From: Patescibacteria group bacterium | Lineage (GTDB): Bacteria; Patescibacteriota; Patescibacteriia; UBA1558; GWA2-36-10 | DNA length: 64,000 bases | Direction of reading: 5' to 3' | NCBI GenBank assembly: GCA_041662585.1 | Contig: JBAZSG010000003.1 | Span: 33,011-97,010 of the forward strand | Part shown: positions 6,062 through 64,000 of the stretch, piece by piece | Layout of the letters: each line of letters begins with the position of its first letter | How positions within the stretch are numbered: position 1 is the stretch's first letter | The notes under the pieces: generated by a model | Database searches by the model: none | What the model was told of the DNA's origin: nothing | The model's input: only the letters and a program-made list of their open reading frames with translations | Position numbers and translations under genes: made by a program

Positions 6062-6063
6062 GT

Positions 6064-6833: not shown

Positions 6834-6850
6834 TATAATAATTTATATAT

Positions 6851-8502: not shown

Positions 8503-8520
8503 TTTTAGACAAACGGAAAA

Positions 8521-9147: not shown

Positions 9148-9222
9148 TTTGGGCCTCCCTGTTTTGGGTTTTGTATGGTACGCCCCTAAATATAGGGGAT
9201 TCTTGTATTTCAAGAATATATT

Positions 9223-9251
9223 AGTATAGCATATTTTTTATTTAATGTCAA
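9223..9251 (-). promoter_or_regulatory. sigma70-like promoter TTGACA-N17-(TGc)TATACT for 8572..9147
   Basis: The reverse complement reads ttgacattaaataaaaaatatgctatact, with an extended -10 TGn. Confidence 0.5.
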
Positions 9252-9292
9252 TATATATAATATATATTATATAGTAAAAAATACTATAAACA

Positions 9293-9321
9293 TTGACATT
9301 TATACTATATCATGCTAGACT
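9293..9321 (+). promoter_or_regulatory. sigma70-like promoter TTGACA-N17-(TGc)TAGACT for 9341..11149
   Basis: cattgacatttatactatatcatgctagact sits 20 nt before the ATG and is divergent from the minus-strand promoter. Confidence 0.45.
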
Positions 9322-9340
9322 GAGTAATTGATAAAAACAT

Positions 9341-11149: not shown

Positions 11150-11215
11150 ACAAAAGGTCCATTGGACTTTTTGTTTTAAGCATACTAAAATTAAGATAAA
11201 TATTAATTTATTACT

Positions 11216-13394: not shown

Positions 13395-13754
13395 ATGTCT
13401 ATAATTCGCACCAGCAAAGTATTATATAAAGATAAATTAGCTTTTTGGCTAATTAATTTTTCTTTTTTGTCTATATTAGCCACTTGGTTTTTATTTTTTA
13501 TTAAAAGAATCAAATATGATCCTTTGGCTGTACTACATTACAATATTTACTCGGGGATTGATATTTTGGGTGCTTGGTACATACTTTTTATTATTCCGGT
13601 TTTAGTTTTAATTGTATCATTTTTAGATTTCTTTTTAGCGGTATTACTTTGGACTAAAGTAAGGGTCATGAGTTATTTTTTATTGCTTACTATTTTACTT
13701 ATAAATGTTTTTATGTTTTTATTTTTATATAATATATTAAATTACAATTTATAA
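13395..13754 (+). CDS. small integral membrane protein (3 predicted TM segments), unknown function
   Basis: Highly hydrophobic 119-aa ORF immediately upstream of mraY. Confidence 0.4.
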   Translation: MSIIRTSKVLYKDKLAFWLINFSFLSILATWFLFFIKRIKYDPLAVLHYNIYSGIDILGAWYILFIIPVLVLIVSFLDFFLAVLLWTKVRVMSYFLLLTILLINVFMFLFLYNILNYNL

Positions 13755-14806: not shown

Positions 14807-16212
14807 ATAGTTTTAAAGGAAAAAAAATATTGGTAATGGGGCTAGGTCTCCATGGTGGAGCTTTGTCGGTTGTAAAATGGTTATTAAAACACCAAGCCAT
14901 TATCACTATTACTGACCTTAAAAATAAAGCACAACTTCAGACAAGTTTAAAAAAATTATCTAAGTTGGCAGGAGCAAGTAGTATAAAATACACTTTGGGG
15001 CGTCATGATTTGGCTGATTTTATAAATCAAGATTTGATTATTCAAAATCCTGGAGTACCAAAAGATAATCAGTTTTTAAATCAAGCTAGAGCCAATAATA
15101 TACCAATTATCAATGAAGCGGTGATGTTTTTTGGGCTTTATCCAGGCTCAGCCATTGCTGTGACTGGTACTCGTGGCAAATCTACCGTCTCTACTTTGAT
15201 TCACAAAATAATCAAAACAACTATAAAAAGTAATGTAGTTACTGGTAATATTGCCACTACTCCTATGTTTGATGTTTTGAGCAAACTCAAGATAAATTCT
15301 TTACCAGTAATTGAGCTTTCTTCTTGGCATTTAGAAACAATGGATGATTATAAGATCTCCCCACATATTGCTGTAGTGACCAATGTTTTAAATGATCATT
15401 TAAATAGATACAAAAATTTTACTGATTATAAGCAAGCCAAAAGAGTAATTTTAAAATATCAAAGTAAAAAAGACAAAGTAATTTTAAATGCTGATAATCT
15501 TTTTAGTCGATCTTTTGCTAAACAGGCCAAAGCAAGTGTTTATTTTTATTCTCTAAATAAAAAAGTAAGAGGTGTTTATCTAAGTAAAAATAAAATTTAT
15601 TTTAAGGATAAAACTAAAGCATCTTTTGTAATGAGTATAGATTACATAAAGCTTTTAGGTAAACACAATTTATCAAATATTTTAGCAGCTATTTGCGTAG
15701 CTAAAATAGTGGGCATAAACAACAAAAATATTTCTAGAGCCGTTAATGCTTTTAAAGGTGTAGATTATAGATTAGAGTACAAAACAACTATAAATGGTAT
15801 TGATATTTATAATGATTCTACATCTACTACTCCAGATGCAAGTCTCGCAGCGATTGAAGCGATGGGTAACAAAAAAATTATTTTGTTGGCTGGTGGTGAA
15901 GATAAAAAATTGGATTATCAAAAATTGGCCAAGAAAATAAAAACAAGAGTAGCTTATACCGTGTTACTTGATGGTAGTGCTAGTAACAAACTCAAAAAAG
16001 CACTTAAAAAAATAAAATATCCACAAGACAAAATATTTTCAGATATAGCTACTTTGAAAAAAGCATTTGCTATAGCTTGGCAACAAAGAAGTAGAGGAGA
16101 TGTTATTTTATTTTCTCCTGGAGCAGCTAGTTTCAACATGTTTAAAAATGAGTTTGACAGAGCGCGTCAATTTGATGCTTTGATATATGCACAGCAGAAG
16201 AAGAAACAATAG
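14800..16212 (+). CDS. murD: UDP-N-acetylmuramoylalanine--D-glutamate ligase
   Basis: KKILVMGLGLHGG Rossmann motif and TGTRGKSTVS P-loop. Positioned after mraY as in the canonical dcw order. Confidence 0.8.
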   Translation: MVNSFKGKKILVMGLGLHGGALSVVKWLLKHQAIITITDLKNKAQLQTSLKKLSKLAGASSIKYTLGRHDLADFINQDLIIQNPGVPKDNQFLNQARANNIPIINEAVMFFGLYPGSAIAVTGTRGKSTVSTLIHKIIKTTIKSNVVTGNIATTPMFDVLSKLKINSLPVIELSSWHLETMDDYKISPHIAVVTNVLNDHLNRYKNFTDYKQAKRVILKYQSKKDKVILNADNLFSRSFAKQAKASVYFYSLNKKVRGVYLSKNKIYFKDKTKASFVMSIDYIKLLGKHNLSNILAAICVAKIVGINNKNISRAVNAFKGVDYRLEYKTTINGIDIYNDSTSTTPDASLAAIEAMGNKKIILLAGGEDKKLDYQKLAKKIKTRVAYTVLLDGSASNKLKKALKKIKYPQDKIFSDIATLKKAFAIAWQQRSRGDVILFSPGAASFNMFKNEFDRARQFDALIYAQQKKKQ

Positions 16213-17353
16213 TTTTATAGAATGGTTTTTACAGCCATTTACCAGCAGACGGACTGATGGGCATCAGCCAGATTTTGTTTTATTGATTATTATTGCTTTG
16301 CTATTATTTTTTGGTTTAGTATTTTTATCATCAGCTTCTTCTGTGTTGGCTTTTTATGAATATCAAGATACTTATCGTTTTGTAAAGCAACAAATTATCC
16401 ATGGTATTTTACCAGGTTTGTTGCTGTTTTATATAGCCATACGTATCAATTATATATATTACAAAAAATTAGCTTGGCTTGCTTTACTGGGATCTTTTGG
16501 ATTATTGATTTTAGTTTTTTTTACTAGCCTTGGAAGTTCTTATAGCGCTCAGTCTTGGATAGTTTTTGGTAGTATTTCTTTTCAACCTTCAGAATTGGTA
16601 AAATTATTTTTAATTATTTTTTTGGCAGCTTGGTTTGAAATAAAAGGCAATGACATAAAAGAATTTAAGAAGACAACTATACCTTTTATAATTATTATTG
16701 CTTGTATTGGTTTTTTAATTATCAAGCAGCCAGATATTGGTACTTTGAGTATTATTGGGATTACAGCCTTAGCTATGTATTATGTGGCTGGAGCTAGACT
16801 GACTCATTTAGGCCTAATACTAGCAGCTGCTTCTGTTACTTTTGTGGTTATGATTAAAGCAGCACCATATCGTATGAATAGAATAGTTGCTTGGCTCAAT
16901 CCCAATGTAGATCCACAGGGTATTGGTTGGCAAATAAAACAATCACTTATTGCTGTTGGTTCTGGTGGTTGGATGGGTTTGGGGATTGGATCTTCACGTC
17001 AAAAATCATATTTACCTCAACCAGCCAACGATTCTATATTTGCAATTATTGCCGAAGAGATTGGTTTTCTTTTTTCTTTAGCTTTTATTATTTTATTTAT
17101 AATTTTGATTCACCGTGGTTTTCAAATAGTCAGACAATCAGATGATACTTTTGCCAAACTATTAGCATTGGGCATTACGACTTGGATGGCTTTACAGATT
17201 TTTATAAATATTGGAGGCATGCTCAAATTAATGCCACTGACTGGCGTGACACTTCCTTTTATGTCACTAGGAGGAACCAATTTAGTGGTGACACTTTTGG
17301 CTATGGGTATTTTAGCCAATATTTCAAAATTTACAAACCAGCATAATAGATAA
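16187..17353 (+). CDS. ftsW: SEDS-family peptidoglycan glycosyltransferase FtsW/RodA
   Basis: 10-TM protein between murD and murG with the conserved SEDS blocks (PSELVK, IGTLSII, GGTNLVV). Confidence 0.8.
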   Translation: MHSRRRNNSFIEWFLQPFTSRRTDGHQPDFVLLIIIALLLFFGLVFLSSASSVLAFYEYQDTYRFVKQQIIHGILPGLLLFYIAIRINYIYYKKLAWLALLGSFGLLILVFFTSLGSSYSAQSWIVFGSISFQPSELVKLFLIIFLAAWFEIKGNDIKEFKKTTIPFIIIIACIGFLIIKQPDIGTLSIIGITALAMYYVAGARLTHLGLILAAASVTFVVMIKAAPYRMNRIVAWLNPNVDPQGIGWQIKQSLIAVGSGGWMGLGIGSSRQKSYLPQPANDSIFAIIAEEIGFLFSLAFIILFIILIHRGFQIVRQSDDTFAKLLALGITTWMALQIFINIGGMLKLMPLTGVTLPFMSLGGTNLVVTLLAMGILANISKFTNQHNR

Positions 17354-18385
17354 ATGCAAAATAAAAATCCAAAAATATTATTAGCAGGTGGAGGGACACT
17401 TGGGTCAGTATCTCCACTTTTGGCTATTGCTGCAAAATATAAAGCCGACTATCTTTTTGTAGGTAGTGAGCATGGTCCAGAGCAAGATTTTGTAATTTCT
17501 CAAGGTATAGCCAATTTTCAGTCTATAAAAAGTGGCAAATTACGTCGTTATTTTGACTGGCAAAATTTTGTAGATGTATATCGAATCAAGCTAGCTTTTT
17601 TTCAAAGTCTAAAAATAATTTGGCATTTTAAACCAGATATAGTGCTGACAGCTGGTTCTTTTGTCGCTGTACCAGTGGTGTGGGCTGCTTGGCTACTTGG
17701 CAAGCCAGTGGTTGTTCATCAACAAGATTTGGTAGTTGGTTTGGCCAATAAATTGATGGCACCTTTTGCAAAAAAAATTACAGTAGTATTTCCTGAGCAA
17801 ATAAAAGATTTTGATAATAAAAAAACTATAGTTACTGGTAATCCAGTTAGAGAAGCAAAAAGTAGCTTAGAAAAAACTTCTCCCCTTATAGTAATTACCG
17901 GTGGAGGATTAGGTGCTCGTTCTATGAATAAATTTGTTAAAGATTTTGTTCCCAGAATGTTAGAGGCTGGTTTTGAAGTTTATCATATACTTGGCAAAAA
18001 AAATCTAGATCAAGCCTTGGAGCTTCGTGGGTATCATAGCGACAAGTTTATAAAAAATGCTATGCTTGATATATTGGCTCAAGCTGATATTATCATATCT
18101 CGAGCTGGTATGTCTTTGATATCAGAGGCGGCGGCTTTAAAAAAAGCTCTGGTGCTTATTCCAATGGAAGACAGTCATCAAGAAAGAAATGCTGCTTTTT
18201 TGGCCAAGCACAATGCCGCAGTGATGATTAGGCAAGGAAATCATCATATAATGAATAGATATTTGGATAAATTATTAGTGAAAGAAGATTTAAGACAAGC
18301 TTTGGGCAACAATCTTTATAATCTCTTTCCAAAAAACGCTATAAATGATTATATTATACTGATAGATAAGATTTTGAATAAATAA
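17354..18385 (+). CDS. murG: UDP-GlcNAc:lipid I N-acetylglucosaminyltransferase
   Basis: ILLAGGGTLGSVSPLLAIA N-terminus and GT28 C-terminal fold. Confidence 0.8.
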   Translation: MQNKNPKILLAGGGTLGSVSPLLAIAAKYKADYLFVGSEHGPEQDFVISQGIANFQSIKSGKLRRYFDWQNFVDVYRIKLAFFQSLKIIWHFKPDIVLTAGSFVAVPVVWAAWLLGKPVVVHQQDLVVGLANKLMAPFAKKITVVFPEQIKDFDNKKTIVTGNPVREAKSSLEKTSPLIVITGGGLGARSMNKFVKDFVPRMLEAGFEVYHILGKKNLDQALELRGYHSDKFIKNAMLDILAQADIIISRAGMSLISEAAALKKALVLIPMEDSHQERNAAFLAKHNAAVMIRQGNHHIMNRYLDKLLVKEDLRQALGNNLYNLFPKNAINDYIILIDKILNK

Positions 18386-19740
18386 TGACCAAACTAAATT
18401 TAGACAAAATAAATAAAGTATACTTAGCTGGCATAGGTGGTATTGGTTTATCAGCTATTGCTTATTATTTTCAAAATTTAAACAAAGTTGTTGAAGGTTC
18501 AGATTTATTAGAGTCAGAAGTGACCAAAAGATTAGAGGCAGCAAACATTGATATAAGATTTAAACAAGTAGCCAAAAATATTACAGATGATATTGATTTA
18601 TTTATTTATTCTTCAGCTTTACCAGACACACATCCAGAGTTACTTCAAGCCAGAGAATTTAAAATTCCTACTTTGAGTTATTTTGAATTTTTGGGGTTGC
18701 TTTCCAAAAATTATAAAACAATTGCCGTGACTGGTACCAATGGTAAAACTAGCACCACCGCAATGTTGGGGCTGATATTAGAAAAAGCAGGTCTTGATCC
18801 GACAGTTATAGTTGGTTCTCTAGTACCTCAGTGGGGCAATAATTTTCGTTTGGGAAAATCAGATTTATTGGTAGTTGAGGCTTGTGAGTGGAGAGCTCAT
18901 ATGCTCAATCTTCATCCTAGTATTATAGTACTGACCAATGTTGCTGAAGATCATTTGGATTTTTATAAAAATTTAACAGATATTAAAAAACATTTTAAAA
19001 AATTTGTTCACAAGCTTCCTGAAGATGGTTTGTTTGTCAAAAATTTTGATGATCAAAATTCTAAAGAAATAAACTTTAAAAATACTATTACCTATGGTGT
19101 GAGTGAAGAAGCAGATTGTTTTTACAAAGATTTGAAAATAGAAGATAACAAACAAAAATTTAATACCAACAAATTTCAAAATATAGAATTATCAATACCT
19201 GGTAAATACAATATTTACAACGCTTTGGCAGCTATGTCGGTAGCTAATTATCTAGGAGTAAACAAGCATCAGATGTGGAATGCTTTAGCTGAATTTAAGA
19301 GTACTTGGCGTAGATTTGAAATTGTCGGTCAGATGAAATCAAATATTGTGATTTCTGATTATGCTCATCATCCTGATTCTATCAATATGTTGCTTCGAGC
19401 GACCAAAGATTTTTATCCAGACCAAAAAATTATTGCTGTTTTCCAGCCACATCATCATAATAGGACCAAGACTTTACTTGATGAATTTGCCAAAGCTTTT
19501 TATTTGGCTGATCAAGTCATTGTTTCTGAAATATATAATGTAGCTGGTCGAGAAGATAAAATAAAAGAAGATGTAAGTTCTGTTGATTTGGTAGATAAAA
19601 TGAATCACAAACACAAGTATTATGCCAATGATTTCAAAAGAATAAAAGAAATACTCAAAGATATAAATCCTATAAATTCAGTTATTATTTTTATCGGAGC
19701 AGGGGATATAGATAATTTAGCGCGAGAAATAATTGATTAA
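18385..19740 (+). CDS. murC: UDP-N-acetylmuramate--L-alanine ligase
   Basis: LAGIGGIGLSAIA and GTNGKTSTTAMLG motifs. Confidence 0.8.
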   Translation: MTKLNLDKINKVYLAGIGGIGLSAIAYYFQNLNKVVEGSDLLESEVTKRLEAANIDIRFKQVAKNITDDIDLFIYSSALPDTHPELLQAREFKIPTLSYFEFLGLLSKNYKTIAVTGTNGKTSTTAMLGLILEKAGLDPTVIVGSLVPQWGNNFRLGKSDLLVVEACEWRAHMLNLHPSIIVLTNVAEDHLDFYKNLTDIKKHFKKFVHKLPEDGLFVKNFDDQNSKEINFKNTITYGVSEEADCFYKDLKIEDNKQKFNTNKFQNIELSIPGKYNIYNALAAMSVANYLGVNKHQMWNALAEFKSTWRRFEIVGQMKSNIVISDYAHHPDSINMLLRATKDFYPDQKIIAVFQPHHHNRTKTLLDEFAKAFYLADQVIVSEIYNVAGREDKIKEDVSSVDLVDKMNHKHKYYANDFKRIKEILKDINPINSVIIFIGAGDIDNLAREIID

Positions 19741-19742
19741 AT

Positions 19743-20492
19743 ATGAAAATAGTTAATATAAAAAATTCCAGAAAGTTAAATCTAGTAGGTGATTTGTATA
19801 CTGCTGATTCAGCTAAGATAATTATCATGAGTCATGGTTTTGCTTATGACAGACATGAAAAAGAAAACAAGTTTGATAAAATAGCCGAAAGTTTTAATAA
19901 AGTAGGTTACAATGTATTAAAATATGATTTTTCTGGTAGTGGTGAAAGCGATGACAGTCCATTAACACTAGCCAACTACATAGCTGATTTAAAATCAGTA
20001 ATTAAATATGCTAGAGAAAATGGATATAAAGATATTATATTGTTTGGGGCTAGTTTGGGAGGTTTAGTATCATTATCGGCATACAACGAAGATATAAAAG
20101 CCATAGTATGTTTAGCACCAGTCAGTGATAAGGTAGATTCGCAGTGGCGCAGAAAAAATTTTAGTGAAGAAGATTTGCTAGAAATTAAAAAAACTGGCCA
20201 GGTGATGCACAAAGCTCATGGTTTTAGGGATAAAATAATAATAGATAGACAATATTTATTAGACAGAGAAGAGGTAAACCAAAAATTATTGTTGAGAAAT
20301 ATAAAATGTCCAGTTTTGATATTTCATTCCAATGATGATACTTATGTACCACTTAAGGTTTCTGAAAGAGCTGTCAAAATTCTTGGCAATAAAGGAGAGC
20401 TTTATTTTATAAAAGACGCTGGACATGCCTTTTTAAAGCATCTTGATACGGTGGTAAACAAAACAATCAATTGGTTAGCTAAAAAAAATTAA
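19743..20492 (+). CDS. alpha/beta-fold hydrolase
   Basis: GASLGG nucleophile elbow and an acidic/His triad region (HSNDD...GHAF). Confidence 0.55.
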   Translation: MKIVNIKNSRKLNLVGDLYTADSAKIIIMSHGFAYDRHEKENKFDKIAESFNKVGYNVLKYDFSGSGESDDSPLTLANYIADLKSVIKYARENGYKDIILFGASLGGLVSLSAYNEDIKAIVCLAPVSDKVDSQWRRKNFSEEDLLEIKKTGQVMHKAHGFRDKIIIDRQYLLDREEVNQKLLLRNIKCPVLIFHSNDDTYVPLKVSERAVKILGNKGELYFIKDAGHAFLKHLDTVVNKTINWLAKKN

Positions 20493-20496
20493 ACAT

Positions 20497-21417
20497 ATGC
20501 AAATAGAAAAAAATAAAAGTCTCAAAGAATATACCACTTTTAAAATCGGTGGTCCTGCTGAGTTTTTTGCAGATGTAAAAACTGTCGAAGATTTGCAAAT
20601 TGCTTTAAAGTGGGCCAAAGACAATCAGCAGCCTTTTAGAATCTTAGGTGGTGGTAGCAATATGCTGGTCTCTGACAATGGACTCAAAGGACTGATTGTC
20701 AAATTAAATTTTGATAAATTAGAATTTGATGGTACAAAAGTTATAGTTGGTCCCGGAGTATTATTGACTTATTTATTAAATAAAGCGCTAGAGCATAATT
20801 TAACCGGTTTAGAGTTTGCTGCTGGAGTACCAGGTACAGTTGGTGGGGCTATCCGTGGTAATGCTGGCACTTATGGAGTAGCAATGGATAGCGTAGTAAA
20901 AAAAATAAAATATCTTGATGAAAAATTAGGAGTTCAAGAAATGGACAATAATGAGGCAAATTTTGCCTATCGTCATAGTATATTTAAAGAAAAGACTTGG
21001 GTCATACTAGAAGCAGAAATGCAACTTGAACAAGGTGATATTAAAGCAGCTAGAGCCTTGGTTAAAGAAAGATTGATATATCGTCAAAATACTCAGCCAA
21101 ATTTACCATCAGCTGGTTGTATTTTTAAAAATATATTGTTTGAGCAAGTAGATTTAAATAAATTAAAAGAAAAGAACATAGATATTGATAAATTTTCCCA
21201 ATATAAAAAAATTCCAGCCGCTCATTTGATAGAAAAAGCTGGTTTGAAGGGCCATACTATTGGTGGAGCACAGGTTTCTGAATTACATGGTAACTATATT
21301 GTCAACAAAGGAGATGCTACAGCCGAACAAGTAATTATGCTTATTAGTTTTATAAAGCAGCAAGTTAGGGATAAGTATGGTGTCCAATTGCAAGAGGAAG
21401 TGCAATTATTGGTCTAA
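20497..21417 (+). CDS. murB: UDP-N-acetylenolpyruvoylglucosamine reductase
   Basis: YTTFKIGGPAEFF FAD-binding N-terminus and MurB C-terminal domain. Confidence 0.8.
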   Translation: MQIEKNKSLKEYTTFKIGGPAEFFADVKTVEDLQIALKWAKDNQQPFRILGGGSNMLVSDNGLKGLIVKLNFDKLEFDGTKVIVGPGVLLTYLLNKALEHNLTGLEFAAGVPGTVGGAIRGNAGTYGVAMDSVVKKIKYLDEKLGVQEMDNNEANFAYRHSIFKEKTWVILEAEMQLEQGDIKAARALVKERLIYRQNTQPNLPSAGCIFKNILFEQVDLNKLKEKNIDIDKFSQYKKIPAAHLIEKAGLKGHTIGGAQVSELHGNYIVNKGDATAEQVIMLISFIKQQVRDKYGVQLQEEVQLLV

Positions 21418-54107: not shown

Positions 54108-54974
54108 ATGCGTACACGTAATTTCAGTTTTTTGGCGATGGCTTTCGTAGCCATCATGCTCACTGTCGTTTCTACTCAGGCTAAGGTGGTCCTCACGCCG
54201 ACCACAGTTGACTCTGTCGGAGTCGAAAGAGTCGGAGACAGCACCTTGCTCAAGGTGCCGGCGACAATAGAGGTCTACGATTCCTTATTTGTTGACAGCG
54301 TCAACACTTATCGAATCAATGATTTGGTTGAAGCTATTAAGCAAGTCGATTCGACTTTCGATGGTAGCGAAGCCGCCGTCAAGGCTCGCATCACACAGCG
54401 CGAAGCTCGGGCCAAGGCCGAGGCCGACAGTCTGGCAGCTGCTGAAGCCGCCGAATTGAAGAAGCTTCACAAGCAGTGGAGCAAAGAAGTGAAACCGCTG
54501 TCGTATGACAGCGTCTGGGTATGGGCTTTGATTCCTGATAACGATACCGCTTATATGAAAGCGGAATGGTTGGCCGAGCGTTATAGCTTGACACTGAGTC
54601 AAGCTGACATCTACAACCTTGATTCGAAAGAGATCATTGAAGAGCTCAAAGCTCAACTTCGGCAGCGACAGAAAATCAATGCCACAGTCGATACTCGCAT
54701 CGCCAAATCAATCGCTGGACTGCAAAGTCAGCTCAACGCTTTGAGCGATACCCTGTCTCAGACCCGGGCCGGCGTGGAGCTCGCATACAAGTTGGCGGAT
54801 GAAGCCAATTGCAAGGCCGAGGCCAATACGGCCGAAATATCAAGGCTCTGGAGCGTTTGGGAAGCGCTCGAAGTACAGGACAGTGTTTCCACTGTCCCTA
54901 ACCCCGAGACCACCACACCTCCCCCCGCTCCCGACTCTTCCAATGCATCTTTGGTCAAAAACGACGGCAAATAA
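54108..54974 (+). CDS. GC-rich secreted protein (signal peptide, central coiled coil, Pro/Thr-rich C-terminus), unknown function
   Basis: MRTRNFSFLAMAFVAIMLTVVSTQA signal peptide. Codon GC3 bias and GC content are sharply different from the flanks. SD GGAAGGGG. Confidence 0.5.
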   Translation: MRTRNFSFLAMAFVAIMLTVVSTQAKVVLTPTTVDSVGVERVGDSTLLKVPATIEVYDSLFVDSVNTYRINDLVEAIKQVDSTFDGSEAAVKARITQREARAKAEADSLAAAEAAELKKLHKQWSKEVKPLSYDSVWVWALIPDNDTAYMKAEWLAERYSLTLSQADIYNLDSKEIIEELKAQLRQRQKINATVDTRIAKSIAGLQSQLNALSDTLSQTRAGVELAYKLADEANCKAEANTAEISRLWSVWEALEVQDSVSTVPNPETTTPPPAPDSSNASLVKNDGK

Positions 54975-54997: not shown

Positions 54998-55036
54998 GGA
55001 GGCCTGCTATCCATTAGCGGGCCTCCTTTCTTTTAC
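54998..55036 (+). terminator. GC-rich hairpin terminator (ggaggcc...ggcctcc + TTTCTTTT)
   Basis: Inverted repeat followed by a T-run. Convergent with the end of the giant gene. Confidence 0.55.
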
Positions 55037-55091: not shown

Positions 55092-58000
55092 TTATTTGGC
55101 TAATTGTTTATCTATTTTGGATATAATATTAGCATTTTCTTCAACAGCTTTGTTTATTTTATCAAGCGAAAAATTTGAATTGTTTGGAGGACCCTCTTTT
55201 AAGATTGTTTGCATTTTTGCCAATTCTGTTTTTAAATTCTGTAATTCAGTATGGTCCATCTGATCAAATTCACTGGTGGAAACTAATTCTTTATTGTAAA
55301 AGCCTTTGTACAATTCATTCATCGTAATGCTATTAATTTCAGCTACAGGAGTTTCTTCGTCAGGACTTAAGGCATAATCTTCAATATTATCAAGTTGGTC
55401 GTCAGTTGACATTTCATTGGTACTTGGTGGAAGCTGATCTATTTCTTCACCTTGAGCTTCTAGTTGTTTTACTAAGTCAGTGATTCTCTCCAATCTTTCT
55501 TGCTCAGTGCCTTCATTACTAATATTATATTTTTCAAACAAATCAGCTCTTTCAGTCAATACATTGTTGGCTAGACCAATGGCTATTTCTTCATAATCTG
55601 GCCGGCTAGTGTCAATATCAGGATTCCAAGATTTTAATAGTTCCATAGCTGTTTCTGGCTTAATATTGGAAACATTTTCTATTTCAGGATTTATTGTAGT
55701 TTCTGGCATAGCTTTTTCTACAACAGCCGCTTCTTCATCGTTTGCTACTGTTTCAGCTTTTGAAGAGTTTTTTTCCATGTTGTTTACTTTGATTTCAGCT
55801 ACATCCATATCATGGCGTAATTTTTCTATAGTATTTTTTGTAGCCAATTCTTTGATAGCTTCCTCTATAGTTATGGATTTGTCATGAACATCACCTTTAT
55901 TGATAGCCTCTTGAATAAATTCTTGCATGTGACTTCTATGGTGTCTTTCTAGTAGCTGGTTATTTTGTTCAGAATAACCTTCTATTTTTTCATCTAGTAA
56001 ATCAGAGACACTTTCTTTTTTAAGAAAATCCCACTCAGCTTTACCATAGTCATCAACAAAACCAAGCTTGGTTAGAGTAGTTTCTAGCTCGGTATTAATA
56101 TCATATTCTGGAGTAGCCAATGCCGGAATATTTTCTATTATTTTTTGTGATTCAAAATTGGCTAGCTGTGTATTTAATCGTTCTGTCATCTCAGCCTTAG
56201 TATCTTCTATTAGTGATAAAAGTTTTTCAGCTTTTACTTCAGAAACTCTGTCAATCAATTCTTCACCAGCTTCTTTATTGTTCAAAATAATTGGATTCTC
56301 TAGATTTGTGTCACCTACTCTGACTACCTCATTGTCTTTAATCAGGATTTCTTCATTATCAATCACAAAAGTGCCAGAATCTTCATCTTTAAATGCTAGG
56401 TCAGTAGCTAGTTCACCGAGCTCAGTATTATTTAAGGTAGCTTGAAACAATCTATTTTCAGCGGCATCTATTTGTTGTTGATCTAGCTTTATCTGTTCGG
56501 CAGCTATATTTTCTGGTTTGAGCATGTCACCCCAAGTTGCATCTTTGATATTGTCAATATAGGCTACTGCCCCTGAATTTTCAATATTTTCTGTAGTAAT
56601 AGTTTCTTCAGCATGAGCGACTAAAACGCGGACAATATTGTCTTGAAAACCATCATAATCATTTACCACTACCTTACCATTTTCAACAGAAACATATTTT
56701 TGAAAATCTTCGGCACTAATACCAGCGATATCATGACCTTCAGACAATTTTGTCATGTTGGCTCCAATATTTAATATTTGAGCTGCTTCTACATTGGTGA
56801 TTTCGTCGCCAAAATGCATACTATCAATACCTACTCGATAAAATACTTGCTCTAGATGTTTTGGGGCACCATCTTTAGCAAGCTCCAAAGATAAATTACG
56901 TTTTATGGATTCTCCAGTTTTGGTTTCTGGTTCATCTTTTTCAATTTCTTTAAATCCAGTATGCTTTATAGATGCGTGTTCAATGGAAAATTTTTGTTCA
57001 TCGTTTATGAGACCAGATTGGTACAATTTTTCAAGCAAAGCAGTAGCTTCTCCAGCTTTGGCTCCGTGTATTTGCTCAGCAATTTTATTTAATTCTTCGC
57101 TTGTAATATCTCCATCAAATGAGTTGATACCAAACTCTTTTTCAAGCTCCAATCTGTCTTGAACTTCTATGACAGTTTTGATATCAATTTGACTGTTTTC
57201 AATGGCATTTTTAGCTATTTCTTCATTACTAAGGTTTAATTCTTGACCAACATGCGTTGCTATTGCTTGTTTGTATTGTTCCAAGGTCAAAGTACCATCA
57301 TCTAATAAATGATTTAAAGCGTGACGAGCATTGATTGCTTCTTGAGATTTTGGGTCATTGTCTAATTCACAAACCACCTTATCCAAATCTTCAATCGTTA
57401 CTCCTTTTTCAAAGATATTTATTATTTTTTCAACTTCTGGATTGATTGTTTCTTCGGTTTTTTGTTCATTAGTGGTATCTGGCTGAGTCGTTTGCGTAGT
57501 ATCTATATGTTCAAGATTATTCCAATCTGGAGGTGAAGATTTTTGATTTTCTAATTTATAAAATAGCTTACTTTCTTCATTTGCAGTTTCGTGTATTGGA
57601 TTTTTAATTTCAGGAGATTGTGTTGTAGTATCTGACTGATTAGTTTCAGTATTTTGTGTTGTATCTGAAGTAATTATTTTTTCTTCAAGTTCTTCTTTGG
57701 TTTCTGAAACTGGTTTTGGTATTTCTACATGAGAAGTATTAGTAGTTGCTGTGTCTTGATTTTCGTCAGCGTCAGTAACAATATTTTTAATATCTTCTAC
57801 TATTGTTTCTGTACGAGCTGCAGCAGCTCCTGCATTTAAAGTAACCCTATTAAGTACATTATCAAGACCGGCATTTATATCATAGCTTCCTCCATTCATA
57901 GTTGTGCTACCAAAACTAACCAATTCACTACCAATGGCACCAGCCAAAGCTCCTTTTGCTCCTTCGTAGCCAGCTTTAGCAAAAACTTTGAGTTTTTCTT

Positions 58001-61000
58001 CGCGACTTAAGTTCCAAAAAGCTTTTGATAAACCTATCAAACTTTTTCTTTTTCTTTCTTTCTCAGCAATATCGGCAGCTTCAGCTATTTGCATTGCTCT
58101 AGCTCCTACTATCTTTTGAGCAAAATCATCTTTTTCCATAGCATCATCCATTCCAGCAAGCTGTGCCTCTTGTATCATTTTGACTTCCAAAGCATCAATT
58201 TTTAATTCAATTTTGGCTCTTTCAGTTTCTTTGATATCAGGTAATTTTATTCTAGCTCTAGCTTCATGAATCAATGTTTCAGCTTGAGCAAAAGTATCTG
58301 TAGTTAATTCAAATTGCTCAAATTCACCAAGAATTTCTCTGGTAGTTTTGACTTCGCTTTTACTTTTGGCAAGTATTTCAGACCTCAGAGAACCAAGCAT
58401 TCTTTGAGAACCCATGTAAGCAGCGCCTATTAAAACATCAGTATTAGCAGTTCCAGCGATGGCACCAGAAGTAAAACCTTTGGCCAAGGCCTGCATAAAG
58501 CTTTCTGGTGGAGTTGTACCAAATATTTTTGATACATAAGACATTCCATATGAGCTTTTGGCTTTATCATCAATTTCATCAAACTTTTCTTGAGCCACTA
58601 CATCACCTAAAATGACATTCATTTCACGAGCTACCATCAAATGTGCTCTGGTTATTAATTCTTTTTTTCCATCTTCATTTAATACTTCACCATCTTTTAG
58701 TGTTTCTAGTGTCTTTTCTATTTGATAGGAAACATATTCTTCAAGGGCATTATTTTCACTAAGATTTTTTATTAACTCTTGTCTTTTTTTTATCTTATCT
58801 TTTTTCAAAGAACCTTCATTCTCTCTAGCACTTTGTGTTATTCTAAGTAACTCCTGGATTGCTTCAAGCTTGGCTTTTTTTTCTTCAAAGTTTTCTCCAC
58901 TAAATGTCCTATTTATGGCTTCATCATTAAATGACAATTCATAAGATTTAGCACTCTGTATTTTTAATTTTTCTTTTTGACTGATATCAAATTCAATCAA
59001 ATCAGACATATCACTTTTTAATTGAGCAAATAGATCTGTTTCACTAAGTCCCTTGTCTGTCAATTTTTCAGCTTTTTTTGCCAAATTTTTCATACCCTTG
59101 GCATTGAATTTTTCAAAGCCTTTACCAAGTGCGTAATTTAAACCAGATGAAAAAGCACCAGCAGCTCCACCAACAGCCATTTTTATAAACAAAGCAGAAC
59201 TACTCATTGTTTTTGCTACCAGCATAGTACCCTTCATAATTATTGCATATTGAGCACCACCTAGTATTCCTTTGGCAAATTTTTTGCCTTCTTTTTTTAG
59301 AGTAGATTCAGGATCTTTATTGGCTGCAATATGTTCTTGCATGATTACTTCTGATTGTAAACAAAAATTTTCAAAGTATTTGTTGATAGCATCTTGCTTA
59401 TAAAGCTCACTAATGTGCATTTCTTGCAATAATTCATCTGTCATCATAGCATTAAATTTTTCTTTTAATGCGTCAATATCTTTTAAGTCTTCTAAAGTCA
59501 AATTTGCAAAAAATTCATTAAATTCTTTGCTTTTAATTCTTTCTGCCTGATTATCTATTTTAAATAATTCAGCTATCTTATCACGAAATCCAGCTGATCT
59601 TGTAGCCACATCCAAAGTTTCTTCCCCACTTTGTATTTTAGTAATAACATTTTTTAATATTTCTGGTGTAAAAAGTTGTTCTGATCCTTGAATAGATATA
59701 TTTTCGCTATCTATTATAGCTATAAGTTCTTCCAAAGATTTGGCGTTTTCAATCAATGCTCTAGCTTTTTCCTCTTCCATTATTGCTTCAGGCTTTGTTT
59801 CAGCTGCAGGAGTTTCTTCAATCTTTTGTGTATCTTCTGTTTTTGGTGTTTCTTCAGGTGCTGGTATTTCAAAAGTTTCTGATGTTTCTTCAAGCAATTT
59901 TTCGGTAGGTCTTTTTGTATTTAAAATTGCTGATAAGGGGTATATAACTTCTCTGTATCTTGCAATTTCTTTTTCTGAAGATGCTTTTTCTTCCCCAGTT
60001 TTTTCTTTTGGTTTACCATAAGTATCATTGTTATCATCAGGTTCATAAGAATAGTCTAATTCACCATTTAGATTGTTAACAAAATAAGTTAAAACAGCCT
60101 CCATTTCTTGGAAATTGCCAGATTCCAATTGTTTTATTTGAGTATTAACTTGTTTTTCCATTGCTTGATAAAAATCTAGAGCACCTTCTTTATATGGTTC
60201 TTTACTTTTTAAAATATCTTTTAAGAGGTTAACGCCTTTTTGTATTATTTCCTGATCTGTCTGTTCACTTTCTGTTGGAGTTTCGATAAGAGGTCTTTTT
60301 GTATTTAAAATTGCTGATAAGGGGTATATAACTTCTCTGTATCTTGCAATTTCTTTTTCTGAAGATGCTTTTTCTTCAGGATTGTAAGAGTAATGCAATT
60401 CATTATCTAAGTTGTTAATAAAATAAGTTAAAACAGCTTCCATTTCATTAAAATCATCAGACTCTAGTTGTTTGATTAGAGTATTGATTTCTCTTTCCCT
60501 TTCTTTATAAAAATTTGGGTCTTGTTCTTTATATTGCTCTGCACTTTTTAAAATATCTTTTAAGAGGTCAACACCTTTTTGTATTATTTCTTGATCTGTT
60601 TTCTCAACTTCAATATTTTCAGAGCTTGTTTCAACTACTGGTGTTTTTAGAACATCTGGTGTCTCGGGTATTTCAGGGGTTTCTGGAGTTTTTTCGTCAG
60701 GTGTTATATTTTCTAAAACTGGCTCTGAATTTTTTTGGGTTTTTGTTTTCAAGTATCCTCCTTTTTTTCTTTTACTTTGTTCAACAAAACCATCAACTAA
60801 ATCCTCAACTAACCTATCGGTAGCTGGTATTTTTGATTTATTGGGTATTTTTGGTACTGTAAGTGGAGTTTGATAATCAACATTTTCAGAATCAATAACT
60901 TGTCCAGAAGCTGGCTCATAGTGGTGGTGGTCAGTAACTTTTTTAGAACTTCTACCATATGTCATAGCAACTTCACCTATAGCTTTTTTAGCTTCCATAG

Positions 61001-61241
61001 CAGCTATTTCAGCACCTTGATTGATGTTGTCTAGAGCAATTTTTTCTGTATCATCAAGCCCAGATTTAATATCTTCGGGTAATTGTTTTAAATTAAGAAT
61101 TTCATCATCAATATTTTGAGTTGTTTCTGTGACAACTGTTTCTAAACTAGGAATAGTTTTTTCATCTTCATAATTTCCTGATAGAAGTTCTCTTAACTCG
61201 TCATCTGGTAATAGACCAGTCTTTATTTTTTTTCTAGTCAT
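55092..61241 (-). CDS. giant (2049 aa) acidic repeat-containing protein, unknown function
   Basis: Single uninterrupted ORF. There is an internal ~120-aa tandem repeat (DQEIIQKGV(D/N)LLKDILKS...EKASSEKEIARYREVIYPLSAILNTKRP) with an 88-nt stretch identical at 59907-59994 and 60293-60380. Gly/Ala-rich hydrophobic segments occur mid-protein. Confidence 0.65.
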   Translation of the reverse strand: MTRKKIKTGLLPDDELRELLSGNYEDEKTIPSLETVVTETTQNIDDEILNLKQLPEDIKSGLDDTEKIALDNINQGAEIAAMEAKKAIGEVAMTYGRSSKKVTDHHHYEPASGQVIDSENVDYQTPLTVPKIPNKSKIPATDRLVEDLVDGFVEQSKRKKGGYLKTKTQKNSEPVLENITPDEKTPETPEIPETPDVLKTPVVETSSENIEVEKTDQEIIQKGVDLLKDILKSAEQYKEQDPNFYKEREREINTLIKQLESDDFNEMEAVLTYFINNLDNELHYSYNPEEKASSEKEIARYREVIYPLSAILNTKRPLIETPTESEQTDQEIIQKGVNLLKDILKSKEPYKEGALDFYQAMEKQVNTQIKQLESGNFQEMEAVLTYFVNNLNGELDYSYEPDDNNDTYGKPKEKTGEEKASSEKEIARYREVIYPLSAILNTKRPTEKLLEETSETFEIPAPEETPKTEDTQKIEETPAAETKPEAIMEEEKARALIENAKSLEELIAIIDSENISIQGSEQLFTPEILKNVITKIQSGEETLDVATRSAGFRDKIAELFKIDNQAERIKSKEFNEFFANLTLEDLKDIDALKEKFNAMMTDELLQEMHISELYKQDAINKYFENFCLQSEVIMQEHIAANKDPESTLKKEGKKFAKGILGGAQYAIIMKGTMLVAKTMSSSALFIKMAVGGAAGAFSSGLNYALGKGFEKFNAKGMKNLAKKAEKLTDKGLSETDLFAQLKSDMSDLIEFDISQKEKLKIQSAKSYELSFNDEAINRTFSGENFEEKKAKLEAIQELLRITQSARENEGSLKKDKIKKRQELIKNLSENNALEEYVSYQIEKTLETLKDGEVLNEDGKKELITRAHLMVAREMNVILGDVVAQEKFDEIDDKAKSSYGMSYVSKIFGTTPPESFMQALAKGFTSGAIAGTANTDVLIGAAYMGSQRMLGSLRSEILAKSKSEVKTTREILGEFEQFELTTDTFAQAETLIHEARARIKLPDIKETERAKIELKIDALEVKMIQEAQLAGMDDAMEKDDFAQKIVGARAMQIAEAADIAEKERKRKSLIGLSKAFWNLSREEKLKVFAKAGYEGAKGALAGAIGSELVSFGSTTMNGGSYDINAGLDNVLNRVTLNAGAAAARTETIVEDIKNIVTDADENQDTATTNTSHVEIPKPVSETKEELEEKIITSDTTQNTETNQSDTTTQSPEIKNPIHETANEESKLFYKLENQKSSPPDWNNLEHIDTTQTTQPDTTNEQKTEETINPEVEKIINIFEKGVTIEDLDKVVCELDNDPKSQEAINARHALNHLLDDGTLTLEQYKQAIATHVGQELNLSNEEIAKNAIENSQIDIKTVIEVQDRLELEKEFGINSFDGDITSEELNKIAEQIHGAKAGEATALLEKLYQSGLINDEQKFSIEHASIKHTGFKEIEKDEPETKTGESIKRNLSLELAKDGAPKHLEQVFYRVGIDSMHFGDEITNVEAAQILNIGANMTKLSEGHDIAGISAEDFQKYVSVENGKVVVNDYDGFQDNIVRVLVAHAEETITTENIENSGAVAYIDNIKDATWGDMLKPENIAAEQIKLDQQQIDAAENRLFQATLNNTELGELATDLAFKDEDSGTFVIDNEEILIKDNEVVRVGDTNLENPIILNNKEAGEELIDRVSEVKAEKLLSLIEDTKAEMTERLNTQLANFESQKIIENIPALATPEYDINTELETTLTKLGFVDDYGKAEWDFLKKESVSDLLDEKIEGYSEQNNQLLERHHRSHMQEFIQEAINKGDVHDKSITIEEAIKELATKNTIEKLRHDMDVAEIKVNNMEKNSSKAETVANDEEAAVVEKAMPETTINPEIENVSNIKPETAMELLKSWNPDIDTSRPDYEEIAIGLANNVLTERADLFEKYNISNEGTEQERLERITDLVKQLEAQGEEIDQLPPSTNEMSTDDQLDNIEDYALSPDEETPVAEINSITMNELYKGFYNKELVSTSEFDQMDHTELQNLKTELAKMQTILKEGPPNNSNFSLDKINKAVEENANIISKIDKQLAK

Positions 61242-61256
61242 ATAATTAAAATATAA

Positions 61257-61442
61257 TTAATATCTATCTTTTAACTCTTGAAGTTTTTCAGCTATTTTTT
61301 GATCATCAATTCTTTGAGCAATGGCTTTAACTATTTTATCCTTGTCTTGTCTTAATCTATTCAATTTGATAACAAATAAATCATAAATCTGCTGGATTTC
61401 TATAATGCTATCTTGAGTTGATTTATTATTAGTTTGTGGCAT
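61257..61442 (-). CDS. hypothetical small protein (61 aa)
   Basis: ORF immediately upstream of the giant gene on the same strand. Confidence 0.3.
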   Translation of the reverse strand: MPQTNNKSTQDSIIEIQQIYDLFVIKLNRLRQDKDKIVKAIAQRIDDQKIAEKLQELKDRY

Positions 61443-61447
61443 ATTTT

Positions 61448-61783
61448 TTATTTACTCAAAGCGTCTTTCATTTTAGCTGTACGATCAAAAAAGTTATAGG
61501 CATAGTCATCCAAAAACTTTTTTTGTTCTTCAGCAAAGTTGGGTATTTTTTTAATAAAGAATTGATTTAATTCTTCACCTGAGGCTTTATTATCTACTTT
61601 TTCATAGTAAGCTTCTAATTGTTCGGTAGATAGTTTGGCTAGTAAAAATAAACCCATTTTTTTCTCTAGTTGCTCTGCCAATCTATCTACATAGTCAGTA
61701 TCTATCTTACCATCAGCATTTGTTAAATTTGCCTTGCTAAGTAAGGCCGTAATAAATTCTTGAGCAAATGATTGTTTTGTCAT
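61448..61783 (-). CDS. hypothetical protein (111 aa)
   Basis: ORF only. Confidence 0.35.
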   Translation of the reverse strand: MTKQSFAQEFITALLSKANLTNADGKIDTDYVDRLAEQLEKKMGLFLLAKLSTEQLEAYYEKVDNKASGEELNQFFIKKIPNFAEEQKKFLDDYAYNFFDRTAKMKDALSK

Positions 61784-61836
61784 ATTTTTATAGTTATTGT
61801 TAGTTTTAATATATATTATATTATACCAAAAAAAGC

Positions 61837-62421
61837 CTAAGTATCAAACTTGGCTAATAATTTTTTGGTTAATTTAACTGGCAAACCAAGTACACTATCC
61901 TCTTCACCTTGTATTTTCAGTATATAAGGCTTTATTAGCGGATCATTGGTTGAAAATCCCCCAGCTTGTGTAAATACATTTCCTTCAGCTATCAACTTGT
62001 CTATAATATTATCAGGAATGCTTTTAAAATATACTTTTTTAGAATCAGAAGCCTCTACTCTTTTTCCTGTACTAGTATCAGTGACTACTATGGTATTGAT
62101 AGCCTCAGCTGGATATTTTGCATAGCTTTTTAAAAACTCTCTAGCTTCTTGTGGTGTCTCTGGTTTTTCACGTATTGTACCATTATAATTTATTACTTGA
62201 TCAGCAGTAATAAGTAATGCTACTTCGTTTATTTTTTTTATTAAAGCATCGGCTTTGGCGTTAGCCAATTTGCTAGTCAGTATTTGAGGATTGTCGTCTC
62301 TGATAGCTTTTTCATCAATATCAGCTGTCAGTACTTCAAAATCATAGCCCATTTTTTCTAGCACCGCTTTTCTTCCTTTAGACGCACTACCTAGTATAAT
62401 TTTATATTTTTTAAGCCCCAT
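61837..62421 (-). CDS. maf: Maf-family nucleoside triphosphate pyrophosphatase (start moved to [14 protein letters not shown])
   Basis: [22 protein letters not shown] is a Maf N-terminal motif. The track start at 62466 would overlap secA by 56 nt. Confidence 0.75.
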
Positions 62422-64000
62422 GACATTTTTTATATTTTTTACCAGATCCGCAGTAGCAGGGATCATTGCGACCTATGCGTTGACCAGAGGCATCAGTTGG
62501 TTTGTTGGATACAGCAGTATTTTTGGCCTCGCGATTGGTCACCTGTTTTTGAAATGGTTGATAGCCTTGTTTTTGTTCTTCAAAAACTTTTTGACTTTCT
62601 CCTGGTCTAGGAGCCTTGTTCCCTCCACTGACAGTATTTCTTTTTAGACTTATCTTAAATACAGAATAAACTATTTGTTTGCGAATAGCATCAAGTAAAG
62701 TATTAAACAAAGTAAAGGCTTCGCGTTTGTATTCTACTAGAGGATCTCTTTGTCCATAACCTTGTAAGCCAATACCAGTACGGAGTTTATCCATAGCTGT
62801 CAGGTGCTCTACCCATAATGTATCTATACTTTTGAGTACAATACTACGCTCTATAATTTGCATCGGTGTCCATGTCTTATCATCCATGGTGACATGGGTA
62901 TTGATGTCTTCTGTTAGTTTTAAATATTTTTCTTTGGCAATAGAATCTATATATTCAATCAAAGTATCTCTATTGACATGACTATTTGTTTTGCCGTTGA
63001 TGTCCAAAAGTTCTTTTAGCTTATTTTCTTCAGCAGATTCTAATAGAAAAATAGATTTTATAGTTTCCAATATTTCCTTGGGGTCAAAGTCAGAAGTATT
63101 TTTTCCACTTAAAGTATGAAAGGATACTACATTTTCAATTTCTTTGTTTACATATTCAAGTACTATATCTTGGGAAGTGCGTTCAGATTTGTGCTCTTTA
63201 TCAGAAAAAATTTCTAAGAGTTGTTGGCGTGAGCCATAGACTACTTGGCGATGTTTATTGATAATATCATCATATTCTACCAAATGTTTTCTAATATCAA
63301 AGTTGTGTCCTTCTACTTTCTTTTGGGCAGATTCTATAGAGTTGGAAATAATCTTATTTTCTATGGGCACATCTTCAGCCAAACCTAGTTTGTCCATCAC
63401 ATTTTTCATACGATCTGAACCAAAAACACGCATCAGATCATCTTCCATGGAAATATAAAATCTAGAAGAACCTATATCACCTTGACGACCAGACCTACCT
63501 CTGAGCTGATTGTCTATACGACGTGATTCGTGACGCTCAGTACCCAAAACATGCAAACCACCTAGTTTGATAATTTCCTCATACTTAGCTTTGTCATATG
63601 GTGCACCGCCCAAGATAATATCCACACCACGACCAGCCATATTGGTAGCCACAGTTACAGCTCCTTTGCGTCCAGCTTGAGCGATTATTTCGGCTTCTTT
63701 TTCATGAAATTTGGCATTAAGTAGATTATGAGGAATACCAGCTTTGTCTAGTAAATTGCCTAGTTCTTCATTTTTTTCAATAGAAATAGTACCAACTAAT
63801 ACTGGCTGTCCTTTTTCATGACGGGCTTTTATTTCTCGAACAATAGCCTTGAGCTTGCCTCGATAGTTTTTGTAGATTCTATCCCCTTGATCATCTCTAG
63901 CAAAAGGCTTGTTGGTAGGGATTACAGTCACATCCAAGCTATATATTTTGGCCATTTCTTCAGCTTCAGTAGCTGCTGTACCTGTCATACCAGCTAGTTT
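62411..64000 (-). CDS. secA: protein translocase ATPase SecA, C-terminal ~530 aa (5' end beyond the window)
   Basis: DEAD-like helicase C-domain motifs ([10 protein letters not shown]) and a C-terminal zinc-binding tail [15 protein letters not shown]. Confidence 0.9.

Follow-up and report, generated by a model that had tools for sequence, protein, structure and literature searches.

We found that a giant gene in a 64 000-nt stretch of a Patescibacteria group bacterium (contig JBAZSG010000003.1 of assembly GCA_041662585.1; hereafter the window) encodes an acidic protein of 2049 aa for which no family, domain or fold has previously been described, the public record holding a hypothetical protein only. 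The protein belongs to a family whose named sources are all Patescibacteria. Three partner genes accompany it: two small ORFs directly upstream (ORF111 and ORF61) and a convergent gene for a protein with a signal peptide. By gene order and similarity the convergent gene appears to belong to the same conserved cluster as the giant, which would make a four-gene cassette present in some Patescibacteria only. Our leading proposal, put forward tentatively, is that the giant is a scaffold which is anchored in the membrane, spans the envelope and has cytoplasmic as well as secreted partners. The cassette and its surroundings comprise the following features.

54108–54974 (plus strand): convergent gene for a 288-aa protein with a Sec-type signal peptide (MRTRNFSFLAMAFVAIMLTVVSTQA followed by KV), a coiled coil and a Pro/Thr-rich tail
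54998–55026 (no strand assigned): G+C-rich, terminator-like hairpin of 12 pairs between the giant stop and the convergent gene
55092–61241 (minus strand): giant protein gene, an uninterrupted ORF (2049 aa, 230 kDa, pI 4.6)
61257–61442 (minus strand): small protein B, ORF61 (61 aa), a single long amphipathic helix as judged by eye; second gene of the cassette
61448–61783 (minus strand): small protein A, ORF111 (111 aa), helical, without a signal peptide, related to DUF5663; first gene of the cassette
61820–61847 (minus strand): promoter-like site (TTGATA, 16-nt spacer, TG, TATAAT) at the maf end and 37 nt before ORF111
61837–62466 (minus strand): maf (Pfam E-value 2e-40), upstream of ORF111
62411–63988 (minus strand): C-terminal part of secA, upstream of maf

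The giant protein and its family

The giant ORF contains no internal stop, and its product is strongly acidic (405 Asp and Glu versus 240 Lys and Arg residues, net charge −165, pI 4.61). The N-terminus (MTRKKIKTGLLPDDELRELL) is charged, has no hydrophobic core and carries no signal peptide. A reading made earlier from the letters of the window alone (the sequence-only reading) had described a single acidic ORF of this length without an obvious signal peptide, and both statements hold. The same protein is encoded on a 702-kb metagenomic contig, and a hypothetical protein of 2048 aa from a metagenome-assembled genome at NCBI ('Patescibacteria group bacterium') is 100% identical to it except for a one-residue deletion. 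The gene accounts for ∼0.9% of a genome of roughly 0.7 Mb. Homologues of 1400–2600 aa are colinear with the giant over aa 449–2048 (e.g. P0003, 2021 aa, 52% identity), and because of this colinearity we take the giant to be one real protein. The closest relatives (P0003, P0004, P0005 and the giant of locus L002) share a basic N-terminal tip, MxRRxKGxKR..., which reads MTRKKIKTG in the giant, and in all of these proteins an acidic stretch comes next.

The family was collected by an exhaustive HMMER scan with aa 600–1799 of the giant as the query. It contains 81 cluster representatives, 23 of them with E-values of at most 1e-30, and when mapped back onto the giant the representatives are colinear over two conserved regions, which we call modules A and B. 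The sources that carry a name are Candidatus Komeilibacteria, Candidatus Kerfeldbacteria or 'Patescibacteria group'. A word-index homology search with the whole giant returned only the protein itself and one weak match, and the same kind of search with two alignments (A1 and A2) returned nothing. Scanning contigs with the narrower family alignment, A2, yielded five genomic and nine metagenomic loci and no viral locus; 2.9 million viral contigs hold no relative of the family. The sequence-only reading had proposed a remote homology search as a check: run by profile, it found no PDB relative, and it is the family of 81 representatives that came out instead. The giant can be divided as follows (all on the minus strand).

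59565–61241 (minus strand): variable N-terminal region, aa 1–559, with the basic tip, Pro/Thr/Glu-rich linkers and two repeat units
57792–59564 (minus strand): module A, aa 560–1150, conserved and all-helical, with three Gly/Ala-rich hydrophobic segments
57255–57791 (minus strand): low-complexity linker, aa 1151–1329, rich in Thr, Gln, Glu, Asn and Pro, of which only the C-terminal third is conserved
55752–57254 (minus strand): module B, aa 1330–1830, a conserved alpha/beta region
56505–56918 (minus strand): core domain of module B, aa 1442–1579, with the motif LELGKxGxPxxLEQ...LNVxANLxxLxEGHxVAG
55095–55751 (minus strand): variable acidic C-terminal region, aa 1831–2049, which can be aligned in part, to P0003 and P0006 only

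Within aa 1–559 only two short stretches (aa 12–137 and 449–564) can be aligned to the closest relatives. The core domain of module B is the most widely shared part: it is common to ∼68 of the 81 representatives, including proteins of only 450–1500 aa, and module A is limited to one subgroup of the family. Neither module (17 aligned members for A, 45 for B) matches a Pfam family, the giant has no match in NCBIfam or PHROG, and PDB sequence-profile searches with the two modules gave coiled-coil and low-complexity noise only (syntaxin, prion protein, keratin). Sub-threshold matches of the giant or of the small ORFs to ColG_sub, Fis1_TPR_N, FAM92 and the ParD antitoxin were at chance level and inconsistent, and we rejected them. 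The AlphaFold model of module B has a pLDDT of 92 and no fold match in PDB or in the viral fold set BFVD, which makes module B a candidate new fold on the strength of the model. Its nearly invariant residues are Gly, Asn and Leu, none of them catalytic-looking, so that a binding or structural role seems more likely than an enzymatic one. The papers on giant bacterial genes that were consulted do not cover this family; nothing characterised resembles the giant, and in that limited sense it is new.

Distant proteins with the core domain (858–1002 aa) lie in a different conserved neighbourhood in loci L023 (126–6577) and L024 (1–7383), where the order is M23 (LysM) peptidase, a coiled-coil protein of ∼200–230 aa, an unknown protein of 435–677 aa (with a weak YkuD match in L024), the core-domain protein, UvrD and KsgA. 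This neighbourhood hints at a link to cell-wall remodelling.

Gene order around the giant

The three minus-strand genes of the cassette are tightly packed (5 nt between ORF111 and ORF61, 15 nt between ORF61 and the start of the giant), and the promoter-like site upstream of them, which agrees with the consensus at 11 out of 12 positions and has an extended −10, is the best minus-strand site between 53 and 64 kb, as a consensus match only. Counterparts of ORF111 and ORF61 are found directly upstream of module-A-type giants in seven out of seven loci (the window, L002 and L017–L021). Gene order and promoter-like site together support the co-transcription of the giant with its 61- and 111-aa neighbours, which the sequence-only reading had suspected. 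In the closest named genome (Candidatus Komeilibacteria, L002), the order is secA, maf, an ORF111 homologue (110 aa, E-value 1e-43), an ORF61 homologue (61 aa, E-value 2e-20) and a giant of 1609 aa. Across L002 and L017–L021 the phmmer E-values for the ORF111 homologues range from 1e-45 to 1e-19, and those for the ORF61 homologues (L002, L017, L018, L019 and L021) from 3e-25 to 4e-9. The 66-aa ORF in the ORF61 position of L020 has no phmmer match, and its match to the family profile is circular (it is in the training set), so that this counterpart is positional only. The five giants of L017–L021 (P0003, P0007, P0014, P0019 and P0025, at 30–52% identity) each follow an ORF111 homologue of 109–121 aa (E-values 1e-42 to 1e-19) and an ORF of 60–68 aa.

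The genes around the cassette vary by locus: secA–maf, SSB and an LTD/PKD protein, uvrA/uvrC, an IS1595 transposase or proC. Because the order is kept while the surrounding genes are unrelated, the ORF111, ORF61 and giant genes appear to move as a unit. The sequence-only reading was right to place the giant downstream of secA and maf in the window; that position is conserved only in the closest relative, and the adjacency is probably incidental. As listed, the two genes share 56 nt (62411–62466) between the start of maf and the stop of secA; the Pfam match of maf begins only at residue 22, so that its true start may be an ATG further on.

ORF111 scores 20.4 bits (E-value 7.7e-4) against Pfam DUF5663 (PF18908), below the gathering cut-off of 23.7, and this family is the best match of ORF111-type proteins in six independent loci (17.7–20.4 bits, E-values 7.7e-4 to 5e-3). 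The consistency of the match suggests that ORF111 is a divergent relative of DUF5663 and not a member by the Pfam rule. A full-text search found no literature mentioning DUF5663 or PF18908, and ORF61 matches no family in Pfam. On inspection, ORF111 seemed to contain a YxxxD-type export motif; its closest homologue does not conserve it, and we set the motif aside. DUF5663-like small ORFs are also found directly downstream of distant giants in L001 and L024, with profile–profile links to the ORF111 family of 64% for the L001 ORF and 88% for the L024 ORF. Profiles of the three partner families gave no other match in the ∼330 kb of Patescibacteria DNA examined.

Giants without module A (L003–L015) have another pair of ORFs upstream, of 106–121 and 115–119 aa, which are paralogues of each other (hhalign 95.6%). 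Homology of this pair to ORF111 and ORF61 is not supported (hhalign probabilities of at most 5%); a marginal profile match (E-value 0.009) leaves room for a distant link. Because the upstream pair differs where module A is absent, the small, presumptively cytoplasmic partners seem to track the N-terminal half of the giant. The giants without module A appear to hold a stable chromosomal position by infC–rpmI–rplT, since a gene for a VanZ-like membrane protein and rplT follow the giant cluster in L003–L006, L008–L012 and L014; a VanZ-like gene is also found near the giant of L019.

The convergent gene behaves differently. Homologues of the 288-aa protein are encoded convergently in L002, L004, L005, L006, L010, L012, L017, L018 and L019 (10 loci including the window), form one connected similarity network, and stand beside both types of giant; since the secreted partner accompanies giants with and without module A, it seems to track module B. 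These proteins have no relative in Pfam or PDB (the PDB profile search gave noise). The 54–56 kb bin that holds the gene has ∼41% G+C compared with ∼30% nearby. Long antisense ORFs overlap the 288-aa gene and also its homologues in L004, L005, L006, L010 and L012, and it is the antisense strand that was annotated by the gene caller in L017.

Such a neighbourhood bears on two other readings of the giant. It could be the remnant of a mobile element, namely a phage tape-measure-like protein with the upstream ORFs as its chaperones: the likeness (a long helical protein, Gly/Ala-rich hydrophobic segments, two small ORFs upstream) is superficial, and the giant has no PHROG match, no relative in the viral contigs and no BFVD fold match, while every locus has housekeeping neighbours and no phage structural genes. 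We regard a phage origin as highly improbable. It could also be an effector or translocator, exported to insert into the membrane of a second cell (e.g. a host bacterium), the small acidic helical proteins being its dedicated chaperones or targeting factors. The arrangement is what such a system would show, with two small helical ORFs directly before a large helical protein whose centre holds hydrophobic hairpins and which has no Sec signal; the N- and C-terminal regions are fast-evolving with lineage-specific duplications, and Patescibacteria are mostly episymbionts (PMC13059738). Yet the Pfam search, to which no PADLOC search was added, brought up no domain of the LXG, WXG100, TPR-chaperone, toxin or translocator type, and the conserved neighbourhood contains neither a secretion ATPase nor an immunity-type gene. 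Unlike polymorphic toxin loci, the giant is present in a single copy per locus at a stable chromosomal position, and there is no C-terminal toxin position with an immunity gene, as the downstream gene is convergent and its product secreted. On balance an effector seems decidedly unlikely.

Hydrophobic segments and proposed membrane topology

The three hydrophobic segments of module A are the basis for the proposed place of the giant in the membrane.

59124–59279 (minus strand): H1, aa 655–706, a predicted helical hairpin with 46% Gly, Ala and Ser
58371–58490 (minus strand): H2, aa 918–957, a short hairpin with an invariant Gly926 and a nearly invariant Tyr942
57843–57995 (minus strand): H3, aa 1083–1133, with a strongly basic stretch before it and an acidic one after it

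The density of small-xxx-small motifs in H1–H3 is five times the average of the protein. Of the three invariant residues of module A one lies in H2, and the windows of highest conservation in this module include H2 and H3, so the Gly/Ala-rich stretches look like conserved functional elements, not linkers. In the AlphaFold model H1–H3 are the sole parts of module A with a pLDDT below 50 (85–96 in the surrounding helices), the behaviour expected of a model if the structure depends on a membrane or an oligomer. A Glu is conserved within H3 (aa 1093–1113, ∼57903–57965) in most module-A sequences, as AIGSELV, AIGAELV, ALGAEVV or ALGVELV; such a residue is not what one expects in a simple membrane anchor, and it could be an oligomer contact or an ion-binding site.

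We computed the charge pattern around H1–H3 across 11–17 aligned sequences. The mean net charge is +3.5 before H1, +3.0 after H1 and +1.2 after H2; the flank before H3 has a mean of seven Lys or Arg residues and a net charge of +5.4, and the flank after H3 a net charge of −2.4 (the turns of the hairpins hold zero to one Lys or Arg). Charges are thus distributed in the positive-inside manner, with conserved basic flanks on the proposed cytoplasmic sides, neutral turns and an acidic stretch after H3. The pattern fits a topology with the N-terminus inside, two hairpins, one final crossing and the C-terminus outside.

Relatives point in the same direction. None of the 81 representatives has a signal peptide and all of their N-termini are charged, and about half of them have segments with a Kyte–Doolittle hydropathy of at least 1.6 located 150–450 residues upstream of the core domain. 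Several relatives combine a hairpin with one single helix, so that their crossings of the membrane add up to an odd number. Among the distant relatives, about half show values of 1.6–2.2 at a comparable position upstream of the core domain. Taken together, these sequence patterns indicate that the giant probably spans the cell membrane. The sequence-only reading had taken Gly/Ala-rich stretches (the one it quoted is aa 661–701) as a sign of membrane interaction; conservation, basic flanks and the transmembrane segments of relatives now give that suggestion good support, and it is still something that we infer.

Several observations count against a membrane-spanning scaffold. The hydrophobic segments of the giant are weak: the highest 19-residue Kyte–Doolittle mean is 1.35 and no segment reaches the usual 1.6. 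Lys and Arg residues are conserved within the H segments, as is the Glu in the middle of H3, and H1–H3 could equally be interfacial amphipathic helices or Ala/Gly packing in a soluble protein. Export of ∼935 acidic residues without a classical signal peptide would require H3 to act as an internal signal-anchor. With neither catalytic-looking conserved residues nor a fold relative, any role of module B is a guess. Finally, the convergent gene is absent or replaced in L001, L003, L020 and L021, and in closely related loci it could have been kept by descent and not by function.

Low hydropathy, together with charged residues that are conserved within the segments, favours another reading, in which the giant is a cytoplasmic structural protein with peripheral or no membrane binding, e.g. 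a cytoskeleton-like or membrane-shaping scaffold of a very small cell. The Gly/Ala helices would then lie on the inner leaflet or pack against each other, the small proteins would be subunits, and the secreted protein would be functionally unrelated. This reading leaves three observations unaccounted for: the distant relatives have true transmembrane segments at the corresponding position, the conserved asymmetry at H3 (basic before, acidic after) is needless for a peripheral helix, and the gene for the partner with a signal peptide stays linked where all other neighbours change. We therefore hold a cytoplasmic protein to be somewhat unlikely.

For the envelope-spanning scaffold we propose the following arrangement. 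The cassette would be read in the order small protein A, small protein B and giant, followed by the convergent gene for the secreted coiled-coil protein. The acidic N-terminal half of the giant (aa 1 to ∼1090, including the helices of module A) would reside in the cytoplasm, H1 and H2 would enter the membrane as hairpins, and H3 would cross it once. The C-terminal ∼935 residues would then lie outside, as a low-complexity stalk, module B and a variable tail. ORF111 and ORF61 would attach to the half inside the cell, where they could be stable subunits or else assembly factors that hold the hydrophobic hairpins in solution, and the protein with the signal peptide would meet module B outside. A structural role in cell-envelope or cell-surface assembly, possibly in host-cell contact, would be likely for such a complex. 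What the analysis shows is the ORF, the repeat, the family with its two modules, the absence of a known relative, and the conservation of gene order and charge pattern; membrane insertion, the topology, the contacts among the four proteins and the biological role are what we infer, and any link to host attachment would come only by analogy with the large surface proteins of cultivated Patescibacteria (PMC13059738). A more far-reaching version, which we judge unlikely, is that the products of the four genes form an envelope-spanning machine, not recognised before and specific to one Patescibacteria branch. It would be an attachment or transfer organelle unlike any known secretion or adhesion system and would link the cell interior to the surface or to a host cell, with the N-terminal half of the giant held in the cytoplasm by its two small dedicated partners and module B joined outside to the secreted coiled-coil protein. 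The probability left over goes to an explanation outside those listed here.

Since the giant gene takes up ∼0.9% of the genome and has been kept with its three partner genes across lineages that share only ∼30% identity, the cassette may well serve an important lineage-specific function. Patescibacteria account for much of bacterial diversity, and a life attached to other cells is assumed for most of them. To our knowledge, almost nothing is known of the molecules that build their envelope and their host contacts. The organisms with this cassette are uncultivated, and such genomes often encode large proteins that are uncharacterised. For DUF5663-type small proteins, the giants are the first consistent genomic partner. 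What the locus offers is a clearly delimited lead and not a solved function: domain boundaries and partner genes are defined, and the topology can be tested.

Tandem repeat, other window genes and known systems

The variable N-terminal region of the giant contains a unit of ∼120 aa twice in tandem, which the sequence-only reading had placed at ∼59906–60270 and ∼60281–60605, correctly to within a few bases.

60291–60599 (minus strand): repeat copy A, aa 215–317, with the identical tract at 60291–60377
59907–60260 (minus strand): repeat copy B, aa 328–445, with a 15-aa insertion and the identical tract at 59907–59993

The 3' ends of both copies form an exact direct repeat of 87 nt (59907–59993 equals 60291–60377), so the identical tail seen earlier stands, with its length corrected from 88 to 87 nt. 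The remainder of the unit is 78% identical at the nucleotide level (60031–60272 versus 60370–60611), and in the codon alignment the 222 nt preceding the tract are 79% identical. The alignment covers 103 codons, with 68 identical pairs, 13 synonymous and 22 non-synonymous differences; all differences lie upstream of the tail. At 79% identity, a run of 87 identical bases would arise by chance with a probability of ∼2e-9. Selection on the protein cannot explain the tract, because its synonymous sites are identical too; identity there is far above that of the rest of the unit, and recent gene conversion or recombination is the simplest reading of the alignment, in line with the recent duplication or gene conversion suggested earlier. 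The 15-aa insertion of copy B sits exactly at the 5' edge of the identical tract.

A self-comparison, which had also been proposed, confirmed this as the only internal duplication: it is the single one found when fragments were compared with the whole protein, BLAST of the whole giant against itself gave the diagonal only, and Tandem Repeats Finder reported short low-complexity arrays only, missing the 340–385-nt repeat because the unit is below the identity range of the tool. The unit is found neither in the other 80 family members nor in any of the related loci examined, and several relatives carry unrelated duplications of their own in variable regions. The parts of the giant that are conserved best lie outside the repeat. 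For this reason the repeat appears to be a local, species-specific domain duplication in a fast-evolving region, with its 3' part homogenised later; it is incidental to the function of the family and the least important feature of the locus.

Exact repeats in a metagenome assembly can collapse or be chimeric, so that the repeat could be mis-assembled or the ORF not be one protein at all. A mis-assembled repeat is unlikely because the 87-nt tract is shorter than the assembler k-mer (the contig name begins with k141) and the NCBI version of 2048 aa has the same two copies. Colinearity with many independent homologues of comparable length speaks for the ORF itself, and we consider an artefact of assembly or annotation scarcely credible.

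The window has ∼30% G+C and a gene content typical of Patescibacteria, and scans of all 64 kb for tRNAs and Rfam families gave no match. At its other end (54–12154, plus strand) lies an unusual paralogous array of split dikinase-like proteins, with RmlD-like and RmlA-like genes interspersed, and further on a cell-wall synthesis cluster; as this cluster is complete, the organism should make peptidoglycan. The N-terminal parts of the five swivel-domain ORFs of the array match no Pfam family.

54–1022, 1019–2035, 2032–3438, 7144–8502 and 9341–11149 (plus strand): five ORFs ending in a PEP-utilising-enzyme mobile (phosphohistidine swivel) domain (E-values 1e-21 to 1e-26)
11216–12154 (plus strand): ORF for a stand-alone pyruvate-phosphate-dikinase ATP-binding domain (E-value 1e-100)
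13754–21417 (plus strand): complete cell-wall synthesis cluster (mraY, murD, ftsW, murG, murC, hydrolase, murB)

Among known systems, phage tape measure proteins share with the giant a long helical build, hydrophobic segments rich in Gly and a pair of small upstream ORFs; the giant shows neither a sequence or fold match to them nor a phage tail gene module nearby. Type VII LXG toxins have two small helical partners, Lap1 and Lap2, and type III translocators have class II chaperones. The cassette resembles both in its small helical genes upstream of a large helical protein without a Sec signal, and type III translocators have central hydrophobic hairpins, as does the giant. It differs from both in having no LXG, WXG100 or TPR domain, no secretion ATPase nearby, and no link in sequence or fold: the giant, the small ORFs and their homologues have no LXG, WXG100 or Lap match in Pfam, ORF111 has no Trp, and no EssC/FtsK-type secretion ATPase was seen in the window or in the 10-kb flanks of the related loci.

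The uncharacterised small proteins of DUF5663 (PF18908) are similar to ORF111 in length and helical character; with all scores of ORF111-type proteins below the cut-off, these would be at best a divergent branch. Cultivated Patescibacteria preferentially send very large proteins to the cell surface, and those of the Absconditicoccaceae have signal peptides or clear transmembrane helices and adhesion domains (fibronectin III, adhesin repeats) (PMC13059738). The giant shares with the Absconditicoccaceae proteins the phylum, the size class (>1500 aa) and a probable membrane or surface association, and differs from them in having no signal peptide, no known domain and only weak hydrophobic segments; of the features of large surface adhesins, neither a signal peptide or N-terminal transmembrane helix nor an adhesion domain (no Pfam match) was found in it.

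A last comparison concerns the way in which the C-terminal part would reach the outside. In bitopic type II signal-anchor proteins that have long cytoplasmic N-terminal domains, a basic cluster, a hydrophobic helix and an acidic stretch direct the C-terminal domain across the membrane. H3 differs from these anchors in its weak Gly/Ala-rich core, its conserved Glu and the two hairpins that precede it, and is like them in its surroundings, where a basic stretch, a hydrophobic segment and an acidic stretch follow each other in the same order.

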